This document shows, in pieces, positions 1 to 14,662 of a stretch of 64,000 bases of DNA. This stretch comes from Desulfuromonadales bacterium (lineage in GTDB: Bacteria > Desulfobacterota > Desulfuromonadia > Desulfuromonadales > BM103). Made by a program: the position numbers and the translations under genes. Position 1 is the first letter of the stretch, and every line of letters starts with the position of its first letter. Where the stretch lies: positions 4,686-68,685 of the forward strand of contig JBPPMB010000044.1 of assembly GCA_051305855.1 (NCBI GenBank), given 5' to 3'. The notes beneath the pieces were generated by a model. That model worked only from the letters and a program-made list of their open reading frames with translations, was not told where the DNA came from and made no database searches.

Positions 1-27
1 AACTGGCCATGCTGCTATATGGCTGGC

Positions 28-270
28 TCATTCTAGCAGATATTCAAATCCTTCGATGTCGGTGAACTCCTCGACCCCCTCGGTTTTTATGGCTTCAAGC
101 CCTTCCCGGATGGCTTCATCAGCCGAGGGAAAGAACTCTATCCAATTTGAACTGACCCCCAATGTGTTAATCACTGAGAGCATCCACTCTCTCTCACCGA
201 TCCGAGTTGCAATAATCTCCAGTCTAACGCCGTCCATAACGACGGATTGTATCCGTTCCTCTTCATACAT
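28..270 (-). CDS. Hypothetical 80-aa acidic protein (cassette ORF)
   Basis: Intact ORF with GGAGGGG 5 nt upstream of the ATG. No motif recognised. Lies downstream of attC-like element 371-448. Confidence 0.45.
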   Translation of the reverse strand: MYEEERIQSVVMDGVRLEIIATRIGEREWMLSVINTLGVSSNWIEFFPSADEAIREGLEAIKTEGVEEFTDIEGFEYLLE

Positions 271-370
271 AAGTCCCCTCCGTGATGTGTTCGTGCCTCA
301 GTTAAACAATAAATGGCAAACATAATATGCAATCCAAAGAAAAACTGTATTTCCCGAAGGCTAACGATTC

Positions 371-448
371 CCATAACCAGCGGGCCACCCGAACTAGACC
401 GACAGGCCGCAAACGTTCTTCACGTCTGCGTTTATGGGCTGGTTATAT
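371..448 (-). repeat. attC-like junction element 3 (minus-strand reading: ATATAAC ... GTTATGG)
   Basis: Imperfect palindrome ATAACCAGC ... GCTGGTTAT (78 bp) starting 3 nt after the hydrolase stop. Its opening 7-mer is the exact complement of GTTATAT at 1354-1348. Confidence 0.6.
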
Positions 449-450
449 GT

Positions 451-1329
451 TCATATTATTTTTTTTGATTCTATGGCGTTAATTGCCTGTTTCAACAGTA
501 TATTAAACTCCTCGGGCTTTTCTAGCATTGGAAAGTGACCAGTTCCCTCAATATATAAAAGTTGATAATTTTTTATATGCTTTCTGTTTTCTTCAGGCGC
601 TGTCGGCCATAATCTAGCGTTTATTGAGACCACAGGCACAGTGATATTTTTAAATACTAAAGCGGCTTCTCCGGTTACATACTGGCCCATATAGTTACGA
701 AAGGCGTTCAAAGCAATCTCCTTTGGGGCAGAAGACATGTCTTCTTTTACCCAATTCACCAATTGTTGATTACTGCCTTCTGGAAACATTGGTGAAACAA
801 AATTCTGTGCGGCACTTTTAAAATCAGTTTCAAAAGGTTTTGTCACTTCGTCAATTACACTTTGAGGCGTGCGCTCTGCAACATTTTGCAAGGTATCAAC
901 TCCTACAATTCCAACTACTTTTCCCGGCATTAAACTGGCTGCTTCAGCAATTACACCTCCTCCCATTGAATGCCCAATCAAAATTGCTCTATCAATGTTT
1001 TCCTTCTCAATAATTGCCTTCACATCGTTAGCGAAAGACAACATTGAAAACTCGGATCTATCCAATGAAGAATGGCCATGACCAGCCAAATCAACTGTTA
1101 TTACTTGATACTCTCTTGCGAATACAGGAATTTGTTTCTGCCAATAACGTCCATCACAACTCCAACCATGAATAAAAATCAGCGCGGTTTTTCCTTTCCC
1201 GACCACATCATAGGCGATACGTTCGGAATCAAAAGACAATGCGACATCATGCCTGAGAGAAAGCTCGTTGCTCGCACATCCTGATAATAGAAGGAAAGGT
1301 ATTAATACAAATAATATCTGTTTTTTCAT
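451..1329 (-). CDS. Alpha/beta-fold hydrolase, predicted lipoprotein
   Basis: N-terminal signal with lipobox LLSGC. HGW oxyanion region and GHSMGG nucleophile elbow. C-terminal GTGHF histidine motif. Confidence 0.85.
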   Translation of the reverse strand: MKKQILFVLIPFLLLSGCASNELSLRHDVALSFDSERIAYDVVGKGKTALIFIHGWSCDGRYWQKQIPVFAREYQVITVDLAGHGHSSLDRSEFSMLSFANDVKAIIEKENIDRAILIGHSMGGGVIAEAASLMPGKVVGIVGVDTLQNVAERTPQSVIDEVTKPFETDFKSAAQNFVSPMFPEGSNQQLVNWVKEDMSSAPKEIALNAFRNYMGQYVTGEAALVFKNITVPVVSINARLWPTAPEENRKHIKNYQLLYIEGTGHFPMLEKPEEFNILLKQAINAIESKKII

Positions 1330-1347
1330 GTTTGTTCCTTGTTTGTC

Positions 1348-1451
1348 ATATAACGGTTTGGAGCTGAGCTGCGGGTCACCGGGCGTGGAGTAGCTGCGTA
1401 TCTTTCGAGAAGCAAGATCATCTTTCCGTCAGCTCTTGCGATTTGTTAGAG
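1348..1451 (-). repeat. attC-like junction element 2 (minus-strand reading: CTCTAAC ... GTTATAT)
   Basis: Begins inside the brnA 3' end. GAGCTGA / TCAGCTC inner inverted repeat. Shares the 18-mer TAACGGTTTGGAGCTGAG (plus strand 1351-1368) with element 1. Confidence 0.55.
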
Positions 1452-1683
1452 TCTGCTCCTGGGTATCGACGTAAGCATCGATCAATTGACGAATCATGCG
1501 CTGGTATTGTGTATGATGCTTGCCAGCTTCCGATTTGAAGAAATCGACGCTCTTTTTGCTGAGCGCGATGGTTACCTTCACAGACTCTTCGCGGAACGCC
1601 AATTCCTCGGGAGAGGGAAGGAAGTCTGAGATCACCCGAAATTCCCCGAGGGGCTCATCGGTGTATTGAATTTTCTTGCTCAT
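1429..1683 (-). CDS. brnA: BrnA-type antitoxin (ribbon-helix-helix)
   Basis: 84 aa. Overlaps the upstream DUF497 toxin gene by 29 nt. The C-terminal VKVTIALSKKSVDFFK segment is typical of BrnA. Confidence 0.8.
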   Translation of the reverse strand: MSKKIQYTDEPLGEFRVISDFLPSPEELAFREESVKVTIALSKKSVDFFKSEAGKHHTQYQRMIRQLIDAYVDTQEQTLTNRKS

Positions 1684-1945
1684 AAGTCAACTTTCCTTTT
1701 CGCCAGTATCCAGCCCCGATGATGCGAATGACGTGCTCGCGGTAGGTAAATCGTACCGTGAGGATGCCGCCACCCACTTTGCCGAAACAGTAGTAGCGCT
1801 GTTCCTGGTCGCTGTGGGTCACGTCTTCGGCGATGACGCGGTGCGGGTCGGCAAAAGCATGTTGGGCCTCGGAAAACGTAACGCCGTGCTTCTGCTGATT
1901 GTCTAAGTCTTTTTTCTGATCCCACTCGAAGCGCGTCATGGTCAT
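1655..1945 (-). CDS. brnT: BrnT-type toxin (DUF497)
   Basis: FEWDxxKxxxNxxKHGVxFxEA N-terminus and ...RIISARxA-like IRIIGAGYWRKG C-terminus. Toxin-first operon order, as in brnTA. Confidence 0.85.
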   Translation of the reverse strand: MTMTRFEWDQKKDLDNQQKHGVTFSEAQHAFADPHRVIAEDVTHSDQEQRYYCFGKVGGGILTVRFTYREHVIRIIGAGYWRKGKLTYEQENSIHR

Positions 1946-1964
1946 GGCAACATTCTATCACAAG

Positions 1965-2006
1965 ATGGCTATAAAGCCATATTATTATATGGCTCAAGGT
2001 ATGGCT
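1965..2006 (-). promoter_or_regulatory. Candidate brnTA operator: ATGGCT hexamer repeats
   Basis: ATGGCT(1965) ataa AGCCAT(1975) ... ATGGCT(1989) ... ATGGCT(2001), 20-60 nt upstream of the brnT start. One inverted pair plus two direct copies. Confidence 0.35.
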
Positions 2007-2017
2007 TTCTTTTGTGG

Positions 2018-2123
2018 CTCTAACGGTTTGGAGCTGAGACGCGCAGTAGCTACCTCTCAGCATGTAGAATTCCTACGCGAGCAACCCCTGATTCACGTGT
2101 CGCTCTCGGGCGAGTGGTTAGCC
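2018..2123 (-). repeat. attC-like junction element 1 (minus-strand reading: GGCTAAC ... GTTAGAG)
   Basis: Begins inside the parE 3' end. Its closing 7-mer is the exact complement of the opening 7-mer of element 2, and its opening 7-mer is the exact complement of the closing 7-mer of element 0. Confidence 0.55.
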
Positions 2124-2416
2124 GTGTCCTCTTCTGGATGATCTGGTATTTGTGCGTCATGCCAAGTAGCCACAATCCATATTACATTATCTTTAACTCT
2201 GTAGAAAAAGCGGTATGGGGCAACAATGACTTCACGATAAAGGTTCCCGGGAAATTCAGGAAGTGTTCGACCGGACGCTGGTTGATCTTTGAGTCTTAGT
2301 AGTACCTTCTCGGCTTTATGCCGGAATGAAACTGCGGCGGATGGATTGTCGCGGCGAATATAGGCGAGGGCACGCATAAACTGATCGCGTGCAGATGGAG
2401 TAAAAACTATCTTCAT
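2093..2416 (-). CDS. parE: ParE/RelE-family type II toxin
   Basis: 107 aa. PSARDQFxxALAYIRRDNP ... REVIVAPYRFFYRV ... IWIVATWH pattern typical of ParE. 4-nt overlap with the upstream antitoxin gene. Confidence 0.85.
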   Translation of the reverse strand: MKIVFTPSARDQFMRALAYIRRDNPSAAVSFRHKAEKVLLRLKDQPASGRTLPEFPGNLYREVIVAPYRFFYRVKDNVIWIVATWHDAQIPDHPEEDTANHSPESDT

Positions 2417-2691
2417 CGTTGCCCTGTCAGAAAGGCGTCAGCCTCGGCCAGAACGTTTTCAAGGTCAAAGCCTATGCCAGCCTCGATCTCCTTCTCGCCA
2501 TGAGCAAGTAATCGCAGGATTTCCAATTCGTGCTGAGTGTGCTCGTAATCTTTCATGCTGACCATTACCGCAGTTGCTCGTCCGCGTTGCGTAATAAACA
2601 GAGGTTCGTGAGATGCCGCCACGCTTTTAATAATGCCACTTGCATTTTGACGGAGATCGGAGATGGGAATGATCTTGGGTGATTTATTCAT
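2413..2691 (-). CDS. phd: Phd/YefM-family antitoxin
   Basis: 92 aa. N-terminal ISDLRQNASGIIKSV ... EPLFITQRGRATAVMVSMKDYE is the Phd/YefM fold signature. Confidence 0.85.
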   Translation of the reverse strand: MNKSPKIIPISDLRQNASGIIKSVAASHEPLFITQRGRATAVMVSMKDYEHTQHELEILRLLAHGEKEIEAGIGFDLENVLAEADAFLTGQR

Positions 2692-2754
2692 TAGTTGTAC
2701 CTCCTATGGTTCTTCCAAGGGTACCATTAGGAGTAAGGTGTGGCAATGGTTTTC

Positions 2755-2808
2755 GGCTAACATGTGATTCTACATGCGAGCACGCTTGATATCGCAACGC
2801 AGTTAGCG
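2755..2808 (-). repeat. attC-like junction element 0 (minus-strand reading: CGCTAAC ... GTTAGCC)
   Basis: 54-bp element bounded by the inverted GCTAAC / GTTAGC. Shares a roughly 25-nt segment (CATGTGATTCTACATGCGAGCA) with element 1. No ORF lies between it and the intI remnant. Confidence 0.45.
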
Positions 2809-3040
2809 GTTTAAGTTGTTGTATGTAAATGCACAAAATGCCGTGCAAACTGACAGCCTGAAAACAAAAATATCCAGAACAAAACCCGAGTGGAGCGTAT
2901 CGGTTTGCGCTGGACGATTGTCACTATTTCCCCCTCAGCGTGCTGTTAACATCTATAGATGACAGTACTTTCTGATTCCGGTATCTTAGTTACATTTAAT
3001 GCCTTTGGCAATGTTATTGATTCACTCCCTGGAAGGGACC

Positions 3041-3225
3041 ATGCAGAAACCACGTCTGCTGTATCTGAAGCGCGAATCGTGCCGGGTCCATCATGACAGC
3101 CCACGCACAGAAAAAACTACATTCAATGGATTAAGCGCTACATCTACTTACATGACAAGCGCCATCCGCCCGAGATGGACAAGGTCGAGTTCGAAGCGTA
3201 CCTGTCCTGACTGGCGGAGCATCGC
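3041..3225 (+). pseudogene. intI: Remnant of an integron-integrase-type tyrosine recombinase (N-terminal SAM-like domain only)
   Basis: Frame 1 reads MQKPRLLYLKRESCRVHHDSPRTEKT. After a 1-nt frame slip near 3116-3118 the next frame reads YIQWIKRYIYLHDKRHPPEMDKVEFEAYLS, then TGA (3208-3210) where IntI proteins have Trp, then LAEHR. This matches the IntI N-terminal pattern HYSxRTExxYxxWIxRFIxFHxxRHPxxMGxxEVxxFLSWLA. No catalytic domain follows, because the next gene starts at 3326. Confidence 0.6.
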
Positions 3226-3325
3226 ATCATGAGGTCGCCACGGTTTTCTTGACCCACAAACGAGAGCAGGTATTATTCTTAACAGTCCCTCAGACCTGCC
3301 ACCCCACTCTGAAAAGGATCGCCAC

Positions 3326-4507
3326 ATGCATATACGCTCTTTCAATCCCCCCGTCCGCACCCTGATGGGCCCCGGCCCCTCCGATGTCCATCCACGGGTT
3401 CTCGAAGCACTCTCCCGGCCGACCATCGGCCATCTGGACCCGGCCTTCATCACCATGATGGACGAGCTGAAGGAACTGCTGCAGTACACTTTCCAGACCA
3501 GAAACGCCCTGACCATGCCGGTCTCAGCTCCCGGCTCGGCGGGCATGGAGACCTGCTTCGTCAACATGGTGGAGCCGGGCGACAAGGTGATCATCTGCCA
3601 GAATGGTGTTTTTGGCGGCCGCATGAAAGAGAATGTCGAGCGCTGCGGTGGTGTCGCAGTAGTGGTGGAGGATGCCTGGGGCGAAGCCATCGATATCAAC
3701 AAGCTTGAAGAGGCGTTGAAGGTTCATGGCGACGCCAAAATCGTAGCCATGGTGCATGCCGAAACCTCCACCGGGGCACAATCGAACGTGGCGGCCCTGG
3801 TCAAGCTGGCCCATGATTATGACTGCCTGACCATCGTCGATGCGGTGACTTCCCTGGGCGGCACGCCGGTCAAGGTCGATGAATGGCAAATCGACGCCAT
3901 CTACTCCGGCTCGCAGAAATGCCTCTCCTGCACCCCCGGCCTCTCACCGGTGAGCTTCAACGAGCGTGCCCTGGAGAAAGTCCGCAACCGTAAGACCAGG
4001 GTGCAGAGCTGGTTCATGGACCTGAACCTGGTCATGGGCTACTGGGGATCCGGCGCCAAACGTGCCTACCATCACACCGCTCCCATCAACGCCCTTTATG
4101 CGCTTCACGAGGCCTTGCTGATCCTGCAGGAAGAAGGTCTGGAACATGCCTGGGCCCGTCACCGGAAGAATCATTTGGCGCTCAGGGCGGGGCTGGAGGC
4201 GCTGGGACTGCAGTTCATCGTCAAGGAGGCCGACCGTCTGCCACAGCTGAACGCCGTCACCATCCCTGCGGGTGTTGATGATGCCGCCGTGCGCAGCCGC
4301 CTGCTCAACGAATACAACCTGGAGATCGGTGCCGGTCTTGGCGCCCTGGCCGGCAAAGTCTGGCGCATCGGTCTCATGGGGCATGCCAGCCGCGCCGAAA
4401 ACATTCTACTCTGTATTGGCGCTCTCGAATCGGTGCTGGGGAATATGGGCGCCAACATCAACCTTGGCGTCGCCCTGCCGGCCATGCAGCAAGTACTCAA
4501 TAACTGA
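3326..4507 (+). CDS. Class V pyridoxal-phosphate aminotransferase (alanine-glyoxylate / serine-pyruvate type)
   Basis: 393 aa. LMGPGPSDVHPRVLEA N-terminus and SGSQKCL PLP-lysine motif. Confidence 0.85.
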   Translation: MHIRSFNPPVRTLMGPGPSDVHPRVLEALSRPTIGHLDPAFITMMDELKELLQYTFQTRNALTMPVSAPGSAGMETCFVNMVEPGDKVIICQNGVFGGRMKENVERCGGVAVVVEDAWGEAIDINKLEEALKVHGDAKIVAMVHAETSTGAQSNVAALVKLAHDYDCLTIVDAVTSLGGTPVKVDEWQIDAIYSGSQKCLSCTPGLSPVSFNERALEKVRNRKTRVQSWFMDLNLVMGYWGSGAKRAYHHTAPINALYALHEALLILQEEGLEHAWARHRKNHLALRAGLEALGLQFIVKEADRLPQLNAVTIPAGVDDAAVRSRLLNEYNLEIGAGLGALAGKVWRIGLMGHASRAENILLCIGALESVLGNMGANINLGVALPAMQQVLNN

Positions 4508-8367: not shown

Positions 8368-9996
8368 TCAGTAATTTTCATGTCCGCTCTTGTGCAGGTA
8401 ATAATCGTAACCCCCCTCGTAGGAGATCATCTGCCCATGATCGATTGCGAACACCCGCGAAACCAGCGACCGCAGGAAATGACGATCGTGACTGACCAGG
8501 ATCACGGTGCCAGCGAAGTTTTTCAACGCTTCGAGCAGCACTTCCCGTGACTGGATATCGAGATGATTGGTCGGTTCATCGAGCACCAGAAAATTGATCG
8601 GCCGGGCCAGCAGCATCGCCAGCACCACACGGCTCTTCTCTCCCCCGGAGAGCCTGTCGATACGTTTGTCGACATCATCGCCCTGGAACAGGAAGGCAGC
8701 ACAGAGGTTGCGAATTACGCCGATCGAGACCATCGGCATGACGTCCTGAACGGTTTCGAAGACGGTTTTTTTCGGCTCGAGCAGGTCCATCGAGTGCTGG
8801 CTGAAATAGCCGAGGTTGACGTTGGCACCGATGGTCACGCTGCCGGAGGTCGGTTCGACCTGGCCGGCCAGGCACTTGAGGAAAGTCGACTTGCCGGCAC
8901 CGTTAACCCCGACCACGGCGATCTTCTCGCCACGCCGAATCAGCCCGGAAACGCCGCCGAAGACAGACTTCTGTTTGCCCTCAGCCAACGGCCAGCTCTT
9001 GGCCAGCTTGTCGAATCTGGCCGCGTCGTCGCCTGAGCGCGGCGGCTCGGCAAACTCAAATTTAACAACTTTTTGCTCGGAGGGGATTTCGATGCGCTCG
9101 ATCTTCTCCAGCTTCTTGACCCGCGATTGCACCTGGGCGGCATGTGAAGCCCGGGCAGCGAAGCGGCTGATGAAATCCTCTTCCTTGGATAGCATCTCCT
9201 GCTGGCGACGGTGGCTGGCAACCAGCTGCTCAAGGCGGATTTCCCGCTCGCGCAGGTAGAAATCGTAGTTGCCTCCATAGGTTGTAATGGTGCCGGCGCC
9301 GACCTCGATGATGCGGGTGACCAGGCGGTTCATGAACTCGCGGTCATGGCTGGTCATCAACACCGCACCCTTGAACTCGGTTGCCAGCCAGTTCTCCAGC
9401 CAGACGATCGATTCGATGTCGAGATGGTTGGTCGGCTCATCGAGCAGCAGCACATCAGGGTTGATGGTCAGGATTTTCGCCAGAGCGATGCGCATCTTCC
9501 AGCCGCCGCTGAAGCTCTCCACCGGTCGGAGGTAATCCTCGGGACCAATGCCGAGACCGGTCAGCACGGCCTGGGCGCGGTTCTCCAGGTCGTAGCCGCC
9601 GCGATGTTCGAACTCCTCCCGGGCATCGCCGTACTTCTCCAGCAGTGCCGCCAGGGCATCGTCGTCTATCGGCTCGCACATTGCCGCTTCCATGGTTTTG
9701 ATCTCTTCACCGAGCTGCATGGTGCGGGCGGAGGCCGCCATGACCTCGGCCAGCGCCGAACGGCCTGCCATCTCACCAACATCCTGGGAGAAGTAGCCGA
9801 TCACGGTCTTCCTGCTGCAGCTGATCTCACCACCGTCGGGCTGTTCTTCGCCGGTGATCAGGCGGAAGATCGTCGACTTGCCGGCGCCGTTCGGCCCGAC
9901 CAGGCCGCTGCGGCTGCCGGCAGTGATCTGAAAACTGGCATTCTGGAACAGGATATGGTTGCCGTGCTGGCGGGCAATATTGGTCAGATGTATCAT
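8368..9996 (-). CDS. ABC-F family ATPase (tandem ABC domains, no TM domain)
   Basis: 542 aa. Two Walker A motifs (GPNGAGKST, GVNGAGKST), two signature motifs (FSGGWKMR, LSGGEKSR), LLLDEPTNHLD and LVLDEPTNHLD, and an inter-domain linker. Confidence 0.9.
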   Translation of the reverse strand: MIHLTNIARQHGNHILFQNASFQITAGSRSGLVGPNGAGKSTIFRLITGEEQPDGGEISCSRKTVIGYFSQDVGEMAGRSALAEVMAASARTMQLGEEIKTMEAAMCEPIDDDALAALLEKYGDAREEFEHRGGYDLENRAQAVLTGLGIGPEDYLRPVESFSGGWKMRIALAKILTINPDVLLLDEPTNHLDIESIVWLENWLATEFKGAVLMTSHDREFMNRLVTRIIEVGAGTITTYGGNYDFYLREREIRLEQLVASHRRQQEMLSKEEDFISRFAARASHAAQVQSRVKKLEKIERIEIPSEQKVVKFEFAEPPRSGDDAARFDKLAKSWPLAEGKQKSVFGGVSGLIRRGEKIAVVGVNGAGKSTFLKCLAGQVEPTSGSVTIGANVNLGYFSQHSMDLLEPKKTVFETVQDVMPMVSIGVIRNLCAAFLFQGDDVDKRIDRLSGGEKSRVVLAMLLARPINFLVLDEPTNHLDIQSREVLLEALKNFAGTVILVSHDRHFLRSLVSRVFAIDHGQMISYEGGYDYYLHKSGHENY

Positions 9997-12406: not shown

Positions 12407-14662
12407 ATGAGCACATTCACTGAAGAGGTCAAGGCAACCCGTGACTGGTTTGCGAGCCCGCGCTTCAAGGACATCATAAGGCTGTACACGGCTGACCAGG
12501 TTGTCGAGCAGCGCGGCACCATCCCGGTTGACTACACCATCGCCCGGGACGCCGCAGCAGCCTTTTATGACCGCCTGCACGAACTCTTCACTGCAGACAG
12601 GTCGATCACCACCTTCGGCCCCTACTCTCCCAGCCAGGCCGTTGCTATCAAGCGCGTGGGCATCGAGGGGATTTACCTGGGCGGCTGGGCCACCTCGGCG
12701 AAAGGTTCAGGCAGCGAGGATCCAGGTCCCGACCTGGCCAGCTACCCTCTGAGCCAGGTCCCTGATGAGGCGGCGCCCCTGGTCAGGGCACTGCTCGCCG
12801 CAGACCGCAACCAGTATTTTCTGCGCCTGCGCATGAGTGAGGATGAGCGTGCGCAGACCCCCGAAAGCGACTACCGGCCATTCATCATCGCCGACGCCGA
12901 CACAGGCCATGGCGGCGATGCTCACGTACGCAACCTGATCCGCCGCTTCGTCGAAGTCGGTGTGCCCGGCTACCATATCGAGGACCAGAAGCCCGGCGTC
13001 AAGAAGTGCGGGCATCAAGCCGGCAAAGTGCTGGTTCCGGTGGACGAGCAGGTCAAACGTCTTAACGCCGCGCGTCTGCAGCTCGACATCATGCAGGTGG
13101 CCGGCATCATCGTGGCGCGCACCGACGCCGAGGCCGCCACCTTCCTGGACGGTCGCGGCGATGAACGCGATCACCAGTTCATCCTGGGCGCCACCAACAC
13201 CAACATCCCCAATTACAAGACCGCTTTCCTGGCGATCATGCGCCAGTTCCATCGCAAGGATGTTGCCGAGATCAACGGCCACTTGATGTACCGCATCTCC
13301 GAGGCGATCTATGCCGAAGCCGACAAGTGGCTGGAGCGAACCGGCCTATCCACAGAAATCGACGCAACTATCAAGGCGATGCCGACGCGCAGCACCGCCG
13401 CCATCAACGCGGCTCTCGACCACGCGGCCACCCGCCTGCTGGAACTCTGGCAGATGGAGGCCAGCCTGAAGACCTACGGAGAAGCGGTTGCCGACGTCAT
13501 GGCCTTCCACATCGATGAAGGTTCAGAACTGCCGATGACTGTCGAAGAATGGCACACCTGCGTGGAGAACTCCTCCTTCGTTGAGGCGCGTGAGAAAGCC
13601 CGCTCCATGGGCTTCAACATCATCTGGAACTGCGACATCGCGCGCACCCCCGAAGGCTACTACCAGGTCAGGGGAGGCATCCCCTACGCGATTGCAAAAT
13701 CTCTGGCCGTGGCGCCGTTTGCCGACATCATCTGGATGGAGACCAAGACCGCGGACCTGCACGATGCCAAAATTTTCGCCGACGCCATTCACGCCGTCTA
13801 CCCCGACAAGATGCTCGCCTACAACCTGTCGCCATCCTTCAACTGGGATACCACCGGCATGAGCGAAGACGAAATGCGCCGGTTCCCCGCCGAGCTCGGC
13901 AAGTTGGGTTTTGTCTTCAACTTCATCACCTACGGCGGCCACCAGGTCGACGGACTGGCGGGCGAGGAATTCGCTACGGCCCTCAAGGAAGACGGCATGC
14001 TCGCCCTGGCCCGTCTGCAGCGTAAACTGCGCCTGATCGATTCGCCTTTCAAGATCCCGCAGACCTATGTTGGCGGTCCGCGCTCCGATGCCGGCCTGAT
14101 GGCAACCTCCGGCGGCACCGCCACCACCAAGGCGATGGGCAAGGGCTCCACCCAGTTCCAGCACATGGTCGAAACCGAAGTGCCGCCGAAGCGTCTCGCC
14201 GACTGGCTCAAACTCTGGGCTGGCCACTACAGCCTGGCAGCGCAGCTCAGGGTCATCCTCAGGCCACACGTCTCCGGTTCGGAGCTGCTGGAGTTGACCG
14301 TCGTCGACGAGAGAAACGCCAGGATGGCCAACATCATCTTCGCCACCCTGCAGGACCGCCGTGACCGGAACATGCTGTCGATCCGCGACCAGAATACCTT
14401 CAGCGAGGATTTCCGGCAGAAGCGCCTGATGACCCTGGTCTCCCTGTTCCTGATTCACCGCTACAAGGTTGACACGGTGCACTACGTGACCCCCACCGAG
14501 GATAACCAGCGGCAGGCCCAGGGCATGCTCGGCCTGGGCCTCTACGAGGACATCCAGACTGAAATCGGCCAGATTATCGTGGCCCGCGTCAACGCCGAGC
14601 GGGTCAAGGAGCTGGTTAAGCCGGAAAGCAAGGAGTTGATCAAGCTCATCGCCAAGAGCTGA
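12407..14662 (+). CDS. aceA: Isocitrate lyase, long (about 750 aa, ICL2/AceAb-like) form
   Basis: [13 protein letters not shown] catalytic loop, [15 protein letters not shown]. Extra inserted and C-terminal domains bring it to 751 aa. Confidence 0.9.

Follow-up and report, generated by a model that had tools for sequence, protein, structure and literature searches.

The integrase IntI captures a gene cassette through recombination between an attC site, folded from its bottom strand, and attI or another attC. The attC sites are imperfect inverted repeats with the arrangement R''(RYYYAAC)-L''...L'-R'(GTTRRRY), are ~57 to 141 bp long, and carry unpaired bases on the R''-L'' arm. The crossover in GTTRRRY falls directly after the G (G|TT), so that the six bases beyond it are those of the next cassette and complement that cassette's own R'' box. 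Toxin-antitoxin modules are enriched in chromosomal integrons (PMC13108822). Clusters of attC sites lacking an integron integrase, known as CALINs, are defined by at least two attC sites with no intI within 4 kb (Cury et al. 2016, PMC4889954), and a recognizable intI pseudogene lies nearby in only 15 of the 279 CALINs surveyed (PMC4889954). Pseudogenes of intI are themselves common, with about one-third of genomic intI genes inactivated by frameshifts, internal stops, or large deletions, and among closely related strains some orthologues are functional and others decayed (PMC2426708).

Organization of the locus

The window analyzed here is a 64-kb stretch of a Desulfuromonadales genome, and its positions 1 to ~3240 very probably (at a probability of roughly 0.95) represent one end of a sedentary chromosomal integron. 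The intI gene, on the + strand, is divergent from attI, which is followed by at least four cassettes on the - strand, each ending in its own attC. Read from attI, these carry phd-parE, brnT-brnA, a gene for an alpha/beta-hydrolase whose N-terminus is of lipoprotein type, and an 80-amino-acid (80-aa) orphan (Table 1). What the analysis documents directly is the anatomy of the locus, its junctions, the lesions in intI, and the recurrence of the cassettes as modules in other arrays. The GC content of the array is 0.46, that of the window 0.55, and that of the flank 0.60. The original prediction of an integron cassette array with a G|TT recombination footprint is now backed by an intI remnant with attI, by attC model matches, and by cassette presence and absence; its placement of all gene modules on the minus strand holds for all six cassette open reading frames (ORFs).

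Table 1. Coordinates of features at the integron end of the window
Feature	Position	Strand	Description
Class-V aminotransferase	3326..4507	+	Chromosomal flank, outside the integron; marks the conserved insertion site
intI pseudogene	3041..~3238	+	N-terminal ~66 codons
Candidate Pc promoter	2983..3011	-	TTGCCA, 17-nt spacer, TAAGAT; directed into the array
attI	2761..2914	-	Ends GTTAGCC (2761->2755); crossover G2761|T2760
Cassette 1	2024..2760	-	phd (2413-2691) and parE (2093-2416); Pfam Phd, ParE
attC of phd-parE cassette	2018..2123	+ (= bottom strand)	R1 96.1 bits, E 1.5e-24; R'' GGCTAAC (2123->2117), R' GTTAGAG (2024->2018); crossover G2024|T2023
Cassette 2	1354..2023	-	brnT (1655-1945) and brnA-like antitoxin (1429-1683)
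attC of brnTA cassette	1348..1451	+ (= bottom strand)	R1 53.8 bits, E 1.1e-12; R'' CTCTAAC (1451->1445), R' GTTATAT (1354->1348); crossover G1354|T1353
Cassette 3	365..1353	-	alpha/beta-hydrolase, ORF 451-1329; Pfam Abhydrolase_1/6
attC of hydrolase cassette	359..448	+ (= bottom strand)	Assigned from flanking cassette boundaries and architecture; R'' ATATAAC (448->442), L'' ~437->429, L' ~377->370 (contains GTTATGG), R' GTTAGCC (365->359); crossover G365|T364
Cassette 4	1..364	-	Starts at T364 (TTAGCC...); 80-aa orphan ORF 28-270; own attC beyond position 1
7-mer pair 1	2755-2761 / 2117-2123	+ strand coordinates	GGCTAAC / GTTAGCC, exact reverse complements
7-mer pair 2	2018-2024 / 1445-1451	+ strand coordinates	CTCTAAC / GTTAGAG, exact reverse complements
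7-mer pair 3	1348-1354 / 442-448	+ strand coordinates	ATATAAC / GTTATAT, exact reverse complements
CCATAAC	371-377	+ strand coordinates	String present; reads GTTATGG (377->371) on the - strand

Remnant of intI and chromosomal flank

The left edge of the window had rightly been read as an array, but the integrase pseudogene at 3041 to 3238 was overlooked. This stump carries a frameshift in an A-run at ~3110 to 3117 and an in-frame TGA at 3208 to 3210, and alignment to the Desulfuromonadales MAG L001 reveals a deletion of ~800 bp with its junction at ~3238 to 3242, positions 2060 to 2860 of L001 being absent from the window. Its stitched translation matches the integron integrase model TIGR02249 (E 9e-11, model positions 6 to 57 of 315) with 41.6 bits against a cut-off of 265 and is 65% identical to residues 1 to 60 of the intact IntI of L001, which scores 463.5 bits against the same cut-off. 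No similarity to the C-terminal part of IntI was found in the window. With a frameshift, a nonsense codon, and ~80% of the gene gone, the integrase is dead; a complete integron has a functional intI, encoding a tyrosine recombinase with the additional domain specific to IntI, and here only codons 1 to ~66 are left. Further change in the array would have to come from an IntI acting in trans or from ordinary homologous recombination. The array is now a fossil and operationally a CALIN with an attI, since no integron integrase gene lies within 4 kb of its attC sites and the nearest intI is the noncoding N-terminal stump.

The aminotransferase encoded next to the stump shows 92% aa identity to its counterparts in the MAGs L001 and L002. 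Directly upstream of the orthologous aminotransferase gene lies an intact intI in L001 and an internally deleted intI in L009, and the flank genes are housekeeping genes. The locus counts as sedentary: it is chromosomal, occupies a site conserved in related genomes, has attC sites of similar sequence, and is flanked by housekeeping genes. Sedentary integrons, as opposed to mobile ones, lie outside transposon or plasmid contexts and are also recognized by >19 attC sites or by their occurrence throughout the pan-genome.

The attI site and a candidate promoter

Positions 2758 to 2914 of the window are 77 to 79% identical to the array heads of L152 and L162, and the core at 2765 to 2822 has one match per locus in 13 of 13 loci from the L152-L166 series. 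The stretch from 2757 to 3105 matches L118, and L001 aligns over the attI stretch as well. In each compared locus the homology stops at G|TT and the first cassette differs; an attI lies beside intI at the array head and ends in GTTRRRY, at which the first cassette is attached. The element at 2755 to 2808, originally taken for a junction element like the other three, lies inside this attI; as an attC it was rejected, given that it occurs once per locus at array heads, that its TAAC is unconserved (CGCTAAC at 2808->2802 is not TAAC in L001, L118, or L152), and that it has no R1 match. Expression of the array may start from the candidate Pc promoter, which matches the consensus at only 9 of 12 positions and whose hexamers are both conserved in L118 and nearly so in L001.

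Junction 7-mers and attC sites

All six 7-mers are at the originally listed positions, and the three pairs are exactly complementary, as had been claimed. Positions 1 to 2808 contain 26 TAAC/GTTA pairs spaced 400 to 1200 nt apart, from which ~0.41 exact 7-mer complements would be expected by chance, versus 3 observed (Poisson P ~0.008); the three form one unbroken chain at intergenic positions. The rest of the window (61 kb) holds 1 such pair, versus ~2 expected.

The covariance model R1 has both an R box and an L box; the 34 attC sites behind it all come from other contigs, none of them from the window. In its alignment 88.8% of cells are paired, versus at most 45% with the partners slid, and compensatory changes occur at 4 pairs. 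Across the whole 64 kb, R1 matches only 2018 to 2123 and 1348 to 1451, both at full length on the + strand and both ending in the predicted 7-mers, with the unpaired bases on the 3' arm of the + strand. These two of the three attC sites form one sequence family: the first has ~30 close paralogues in metagenomic arrays, with varying 7-mer tails, and the second has an orthologue in L118, attached to the same cassette and with CTATAAC as the differing downstream tail. The element at 2755 to 2808 gave no R1 match, and the third site, 359 to 448, reached 4 bits, which is not significant. The attC layout is borne out at the first two sites by the structure-aware R1 and is compatible with the fold of the third.

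For this third site, no homologue was found by blastn-short in any collected locus, and the cassette boundaries on either side of it are set by homologues found in other arrays. The minimum-free-energy (MFE) DNA fold of 359 to 448 (+ strand) contains the TAAC/GTTA R box and, as we read it, pairs CCCATAAC with GTT(T)ATGGG as the L box, leaving a single T unpaired on the R''-L'' arm. We read the attC after the hydrolase gene as this stretch, with GTTATGG as its L' box. The original prediction had ended the element at GTTATGG (377->371), a string that does exist, and had expected the next attC, beyond position 1, to open with CCATAAC; with the functional end placed at GTTAGCC (365->359), that attC should instead open with GGCTAAC, as in the orthologous 80-aa cassettes, starting ~7 to 13 nt beyond position 1.

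MFE alone is a poor test for attC sites. The folding energies of the two long sites were no better than those of shuffled sequence (z = -0.05 and +0.59); among the elements as originally delimited, 371 to 448 folded better than shuffles and the others did not. A search of 1 to 3400 against Rfam in E-value mode, a database with no attC family, returned a lone spurious snoRNA match.

Cassettes and their reuse in other arrays

All four cassettes are found in other contexts, and the homology breaks at the G|TT crossover in every compared array. L100 and L120 match window positions 2020 to 2761 at 89%; there phd-parE is an internal cassette, preceded by another attC in place of attI and followed by a different tail, AGCTAAC. 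L118 matches 1349 to 2024 at 91%, with brnTA joined straight to attI, and brnTA is the first cassette in L141 too, where it adjoins an intact intI; being joined directly to attI at G|TTAGAG in both loci, it leaves phd-parE absent there. The Pfam match to BrnT is strong (4e-23) and that to a BrnA-like protein weak. The boundaries originally proposed for these two cassettes, 2024 to 2760 and 1354 to 2023, are confirmed to the base by the homologue breakpoints. Toxin-antitoxin modules thus occupy 2 of the 4 cassettes, and these two may stabilize the array.

The hydrolase cassette, first delimited as 377 to 1353, is revised to 365 to 1353. The translation of its gene includes a lipobox-like LLSGC, and homologous cassettes start with G|TTATAT in L170 and L172 and with GTTAAAT in L173, behind unrelated attC sites. 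They are spread over Desulfobacterales, "Ca. Electrothrix," Sedimenticola, and Marinobacter at 80 to 91% aa identity. The fourth cassette, correctly anticipated as an 80-aa orphan ORF running off the window, had no Pfam family, and orthologous cassettes (85 to 91% aa identity) are present in L152, L162, and L167 to L169. These sit behind two different attC types, and their starts read G|TTAGCC (as in L162), G|TCAGCC, or G|TTACCC and continue with TTCGAAAA; at 37 nt past the stop codon comes their own attC, whose opening GGCTAAC pairs with G|TTAGCC. Cassette-level differences between arrays, sought at the predicted junctions, were found precisely there, with neighbors differing among arrays. 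The cassettes behave as discrete mobile units, reused with G|TT breakpoints and linked by R''/R' complementarity at three of three junctions in the window, and IntI would have catalyzed recombination in this array in the past.

Relatives differ in the state of their integrase gene. The intI deletions in the window, L009, and L118 differ from one another and the L152-L166 loci are without intI altogether, making four different lesions, and intI is intact in L001, L141, and L117. It is conceivable, though distinctly doubtful, that in this marine-sediment Desulfuromonadales lineage intI was lost repeatedly and independently while attI and the toxin-antitoxin-rich head were kept, with selection freezing the arrays (a toxin-antitoxin lock) and cassettes moving by trans-acting integrases or transformation. 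The hydrolase cassette's very broad distribution would fit such a scenario; if true, array freezing by selection would be more than simple neutral decay.

Alternative interpretations

The junction elements could be ordinary intergenic repeats (REP/MITE-like sequences or terminator palindromes) between toxin-antitoxin operons, the 7-mers being coincidental, as the nonsignificant MFE z-scores and a set of only three pairs with a chance probability that is not vanishingly small might suggest. The array head with its integron integrase remnant and conserved attI, the same repeats flanking unrelated genes in arrays beside bona fide IntI (L001, L141, L117), and the gain and loss of cassettes exactly at G|TT all speak against this, and with the R1 matches included we count the idea as refuted, its probability being practically nil. 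The end of the hydrolase attC also allows two placements, at GTTAGCC (365->359) or at GTTATGG (377->371). Under the shorter version, the 12 nt TTATGGGAATCG (376->365) would be the remnant of a nearly wholly deleted cassette before the 80-aa cassette. A remnant of exactly 6 + 6 nt would be an unlikely coincidence, and GGTTATG-GGAATC-GTTAGCC has the same L'-spacer-R' arrangement as the homologous hydrolase cassettes of L172 (GGTTAAC-TTAAC-GTTGAGG) and L173 (GGTTAGC-TTGGC-GTTGGAT). The MFE fold of 359 to 448 uses the R box of the longer version, whose bottom strand has a G after AAC, as in most attC sites (PMC2727003). Two core-like sites do lie 12 nt apart, and ATAACCAGC (446->438) and GCTGGTTAT (381->373) make a perfect 9-bp stem right at the ends of the shorter version, yet we judge a deleted-cassette remnant quite improbable and less likely than the L'-spacer-R' reading. 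Even with the GTTATGG end, the next cassette would still start G|TTAGCC and the GGCTAAC opening of its attC would still be predicted.

The integron could still be active if a second, intact integrase, encoded at another genomic locus or by a mobile element, acted on it in trans, making the stump irrelevant to function. More than one intI is present in ~20% of integron-carrying genomes (PMC2426708, PMC4889954), Geobacter species have at least two (PMC2426708), and attI and all of the attC R boxes in the window are intact; however, no other IntI-like sequence was found within the 64-kb window (best tblastn match outside the stump, E 0.11), and we consider such activity unlikely.

Comparison with known integrons

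The locus provides a base-resolved integron annotation in an uncultured Desulfuromonadales genome, with attI, three attC sites, four cassettes, and the exact integrase lesions. It brings to light a previously unnamed attC sequence family common to many sediment metagenome arrays and shows cassettes, including the alpha/beta-hydrolase, exchanged between distant taxa; knowledge of how integrons work is unchanged by it. Standard pipelines would probably report the locus only as a CALIN or miss it entirely. Because the IntI-specific C-terminal part is absent, the pseudogene screen of IntegronFinder (IntI_Cterm profile) would probably overlook the stump and report a CALIN.

The element belongs to a well-known kind, the sedentary chromosomal integron decaying toward a CALIN. 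As in the superintegron of Vibrio cholerae with its VCR repeats and the integrons of Xanthomonas and Geobacter, intI is divergent from attI, the cassettes are co-oriented, and the attC repeats are lineage specific and similar in sequence, the family here opening with TAACGGTTTRGANCTGAG on the bottom strand. It also shares with them a fixed chromosomal site common to relatives (L001, L009), many toxin-antitoxin cassettes, an array GC content below that of the host, and cassettes shuffled between relatives. In contrast to those integrons, the integrase is a 66-codon stump, the host belongs to an uncultured Desulfuromonadales lineage, and the attC family is distinct from every named repeat family; the end of the window limits the visible cassettes to four. 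Like a CALIN, the locus combines three attC sites with the lack of a functional intI nearby, but unlike CALINs in general its origin can still be read from the retained attI and intI 5' end and from the intact orthologue of a sister MAG. The combination of frameshift, internal stop, and large deletion is that of the intI pseudogenes described as "pseudo-integrons" (Nemergut et al. 2008, PMC2426708), from which this locus does not differ in kind and of which it is one more example.

Cassette composition of the array

At its left edge, the window carries a sedentary chromosomal integron whose integrase gene is a pseudogene; in operational terms, the locus is a CALIN (a cluster of attC sites lacking an integron integrase). 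The original prediction had read it as an array of minus-strand cassettes whose junction 7-mers are complementary across cassette boundaries. That reading stands, although the integrase stump and attI had been missed. Sequence reading and a script both placed the 7-mers on the plus strand, with GGCTAAC (2755-2761) the exact reverse complement of GTTAGCC (2117-2123), CTCTAAC (2018-2024) of GTTAGAG (1445-1451), and ATATAAC (1348-1354) of GTTATAT (442-448), and the cassette genes lie on the minus strand throughout. Positions 1-2808 hold 3 exact 7-mer complements versus about 0.41 expected (26 TAAC/GTTA pairs at cassette-like spacing), and the other 61 kb of the window holds 1 versus about 2 expected. 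The GC content is 0.46 in the array, 0.55 in the window, and about 0.60 in the flank.

Features of the integron and its flank
Feature	Position	Strand	Basis or remark
80-aa ORF	28-270	-	without Pfam family
Alpha/beta hydrolase	451-1329	-	Pfam
attC	1348-1451	+	R1, 53.8 bits, E 1.1e-12
BrnA-like antitoxin	1429-1683	-	Pfam, weak match
BrnT	1655-1945	-	Pfam
attC	2018-2123	+	R1, 96.1 bits, E 1.5e-24
ParE	2093-2416	-	Pfam
Phd	2413-2691	-	Pfam
Candidate cassette promoter (Pc)	3011->2983	-	TTGCCA-17-TAAGAT; conserved in L118 and L001; consensus match only
intI stump	3041 to ~3238	+	divergent from cassettes; translation across two frames
Class-V aminotransferase (flank gene)	3326-4507	+	92% identical in two Desulfuromonadales MAGs

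Cassettes in other arrays

The strongest evidence is the presence or absence of individual cassettes in comparison loci from MAGs and metagenome contigs. Locus L118 matches window 1349-2024 at 91%, and its next bases match window 2757-3105, so that brnT-brnA is the first cassette there, joined to attI (...CTCTAA|C-ATAG...) without the phd-parE cassette; L141 is arranged likewise and adjoins an intact intI. The phd-parE cassette is found in L100 and L120 (89% over window 2020-2761), where the attC of another cassette, not attI, lies upstream of GGCTAAC and the downstream tail is AGCTAAC, versus CTCTAAC in the window. Hydrolase homologues (86 to 91% amino acid identity) have cassette starts of G|TTATAT in L170 and L172 and GTTAAAT in L173 and are preceded in these three loci by three unrelated attC sites. 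Copies of the 80-aa cassette open with G|TTAGCC in L162, G|TCAGCC in L152, and G|TTACCC in L167-L169, and two different attC types precede them. Array order varies between loci. Conservation of the modules and their order in relatives, which the original prediction had named as evidence against an array, was not found.

More than 100 homologues of the hydrolase share 80 to 91% amino acid identity, from named sources that include Desulfobacterales, "Ca. Electrothrix," Sedimenticola, Marinobacter, and Marinobacterium, and the attC of the cassette is not the same between copies. This identity is far above phylogenetic expectation, which suggests a widely exchanged cassette. In the metagenomic array L170, the hydrolase cassette is followed by one (1322-2473) for a 383-aa PF00144 (beta-lactamase family) protein. 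In L167-L169 (e.g., L167:1461-1703), the 80-aa cassette has an attC that breaks off after GGCTAACCAGACG and continues into a shortened HigB-like ORF (58 aa versus 96 aa in L152), which looks like a deletion fusing two cassettes.

attC sites

Rfam contains no attC family. A metagenome scan with an 18-mer common to the two long junction elements hit 71 contigs. Clear homologues of these elements, with varying 7-mer tails, are present in about 40, and several contigs have two copies. A covariance model, R1, was built from 34 sites on other contigs, leaving out orthologues of the window's own cassettes. The alignment has a 4-bp R box (TAAC/GTTA) and a 9-bp L box, with 88.8% of cells paired versus at most 45% with slid partners, and four pairs are changed on both sides (e.g., CTG/CAG, CGG/CCG, GCG/CGC, and ACG/CGT). 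In the 64-kb window, R1, a model-based check of the kind that the original prediction had called for, gave exactly two matches, at the two long elements, both full length. Both matches are on the plus strand, which is thus the bottom, recombinogenic strand, as expected with minus-strand cassettes. It is the 3' (R''-L'') arm that holds the unpaired bases, in line with descriptions of attC sites (PMC2727003). Plain minimum free energy (MFE) folding of the two sites was no better than that of shuffled sequence, so their structure is confined to the boxes.

The third site was relocated. On the minus strand, the hydrolase gene is followed by ATATAAC...GCTG GTTATGG GAATC GTTAGCC TTCGGG..., and the attC had been predicted to end at GTTATGG. 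In all other copies of the 80-aa cassette, homology instead begins at GTTAGCC (365->359), and the hydrolase cassettes of L172 and L173 end in GGTTAAC-TTAAC-GTTGAGG and GGTTAGC-TTGGC-GTTGGAT, so that GGTTATG-GGAATC-GTTAGCC in the window corresponds to L'-spacer-R'. In a DNA MFE fold of 359-448 (plus strand), TAAC at 362-365 pairs with GTTA at 442-445, and in our reading CCCATAAC pairs with GTT(T)ATGGG, leaving one T unpaired on the R''-L'' arm. Together, these place the attC at 359-448 and the hydrolase cassette at 365-1353. R1 does not recognize 359-448 as a member of its family (4 bits), and no homologue of it was present among the fetched loci. A minority reading keeps the end at GTTATGG, followed by a 12-nt cassette remnant. 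The prediction for the site beyond the window changes as well: an attC opening with CCATAAC had been predicted, but in orthologous 80-aa cassettes the region after the stop codon, which is alignable to window 30->1, goes on with GAAACT-GGCTAAC, so that GGCTAAC is expected about 7 to 13 nt past position 1.

attI and the integrase remnant

The element at 2755-2808, proposed as a fourth junction element of the attC kind, is attI instead. Homologues of window 2757-3105 (in L118) and of 2758-2914 (in L152 and L162) stand at the head of arrays; L001 also aligns over this stretch, and the core at 2765-2822 has one match per locus in all 13 loci of the L152-L166 group. The first cassette after attI differs between loci, and homology stops at G|TT of the terminal core, which reads GTTAGCC in the window itself, GTTAGAG in both L118 and L141, GTTATGC in L001, and GTTATTC in L152. 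As an attC, the element fails: its CGCTAAC is TTTAC, CTACA, or CTACC in orthologues, and the attC model found no match in it.

The intI stump translates as MQKPRLL...RTEK / NYIQWIKRYIYLHDKRHPPEMDKVEFEAYLS*LAEHR, and the stitched peptide matches two integron-integrase models, TIGR02249 (E 9e-11; positions 6-57 out of 315 in the model) and NF011946, with 65% identity to residues 1-60 of the L001 IntI. Alignment of the DNA to L001, together with motif positions, mapped three lesions: a frameshift of 1 nt in the A-run around 3110-3117, a TGA in place of TGG at 3208-3210, and the loss of about 800 bp (equivalent to L001 2060-2860) with its junction at about 3238-3242. No further IntI-like sequence was found by tblastn in the 64 kb. 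A weak tblastn similarity to the IntI catalytic part at 14132-14458 (minus strand; 24% identity, E 0.11) may stem from an unrelated tyrosine recombinase, or simply be noise.

In L001, one of the two MAGs with the 92% identical aminotransferase, an intact 320-aa IntI (463.5 bits on TIGR02249 versus a cutoff of 265) lies directly upstream of the orthologous aminotransferase gene, with minus-strand cassettes past it, and intI is also intact in L141 and L117. In L009 (9714-9883), intI upstream of the orthologous aminotransferase gene is reduced by a large internal deletion to 56 codons, an in-frame fusion of the first ~15 and last ~36 codons; an attC of a different type lies at 9028-9135. L118 (5405-5754) has kept attI but only about 65 nt of intI, and the position expected for the rest is taken by a gene for a TRAP-type solute-binding protein; a close relative thus shows yet another integrase truncation, the third and unlike the others. 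The L152-L166 group (ENA/JGI contigs) has kept attI (e.g., L152:5286-5442; 77 to 79% identity to the window) without any intI. An AP-endonuclease-family gene abuts attI in this group, and the array holds a 110-aa ORF, the 80-aa ORF, HigB/HTH, DUF3024, Phd/YoeB, and TauE. Upstream of the window aminotransferase is a sigma-70-like site (3249-3276, plus strand; TTGACC, 16-nt spacer, TATTAT). Homology to L001 and L009 picks up again at about 3236-3239 and covers this site. Only about 10 nt separate the end of the intI deletion from the -35 hexamer downstream, the deletion sparing the promoter of the neighboring gene.

Proposed mechanism

The proposed steps follow established integron biology. IntI would have joined the folded bottom strand of each incoming attC to attI by recombination at G|TT, adding each new cassette at 2760/2761, and each cassette would then open with six bases (TTAGCC, TTAGAG, TTATAT, and TTAGCC) that complement its own R''. 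Now that intI is destroyed, any further change in the array would require a trans-acting IntI or homologous recombination.

Overlapping palindromes (ATGGCTATAAAGCCAT and GCCATATTATTATATGGC) at 1965-1993, upstream of brnT but inside the cassette and conserved in L118 and L141, are probably a toxin-antitoxin operator/promoter that would give this cassette its own promoter, and both toxin-antitoxin cassettes probably carry one.

Comparison with known integrons

Toxin-antitoxin cassettes are enriched in chromosomal integrons (PMC13108822). Pseudogenes make up about one third of the intI genes found in genomes, and integrons are already known from Geobacter (PMC2426708); CALINs have been described, occasionally with intI pseudogenes nearby (PMC4889954). 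To these, the locus adds, modestly, an unnamed attC sequence family that sediment metagenomes commonly contain, a set of several different integrase lesions within one lineage, and a hydrolase cassette common to distant taxa.
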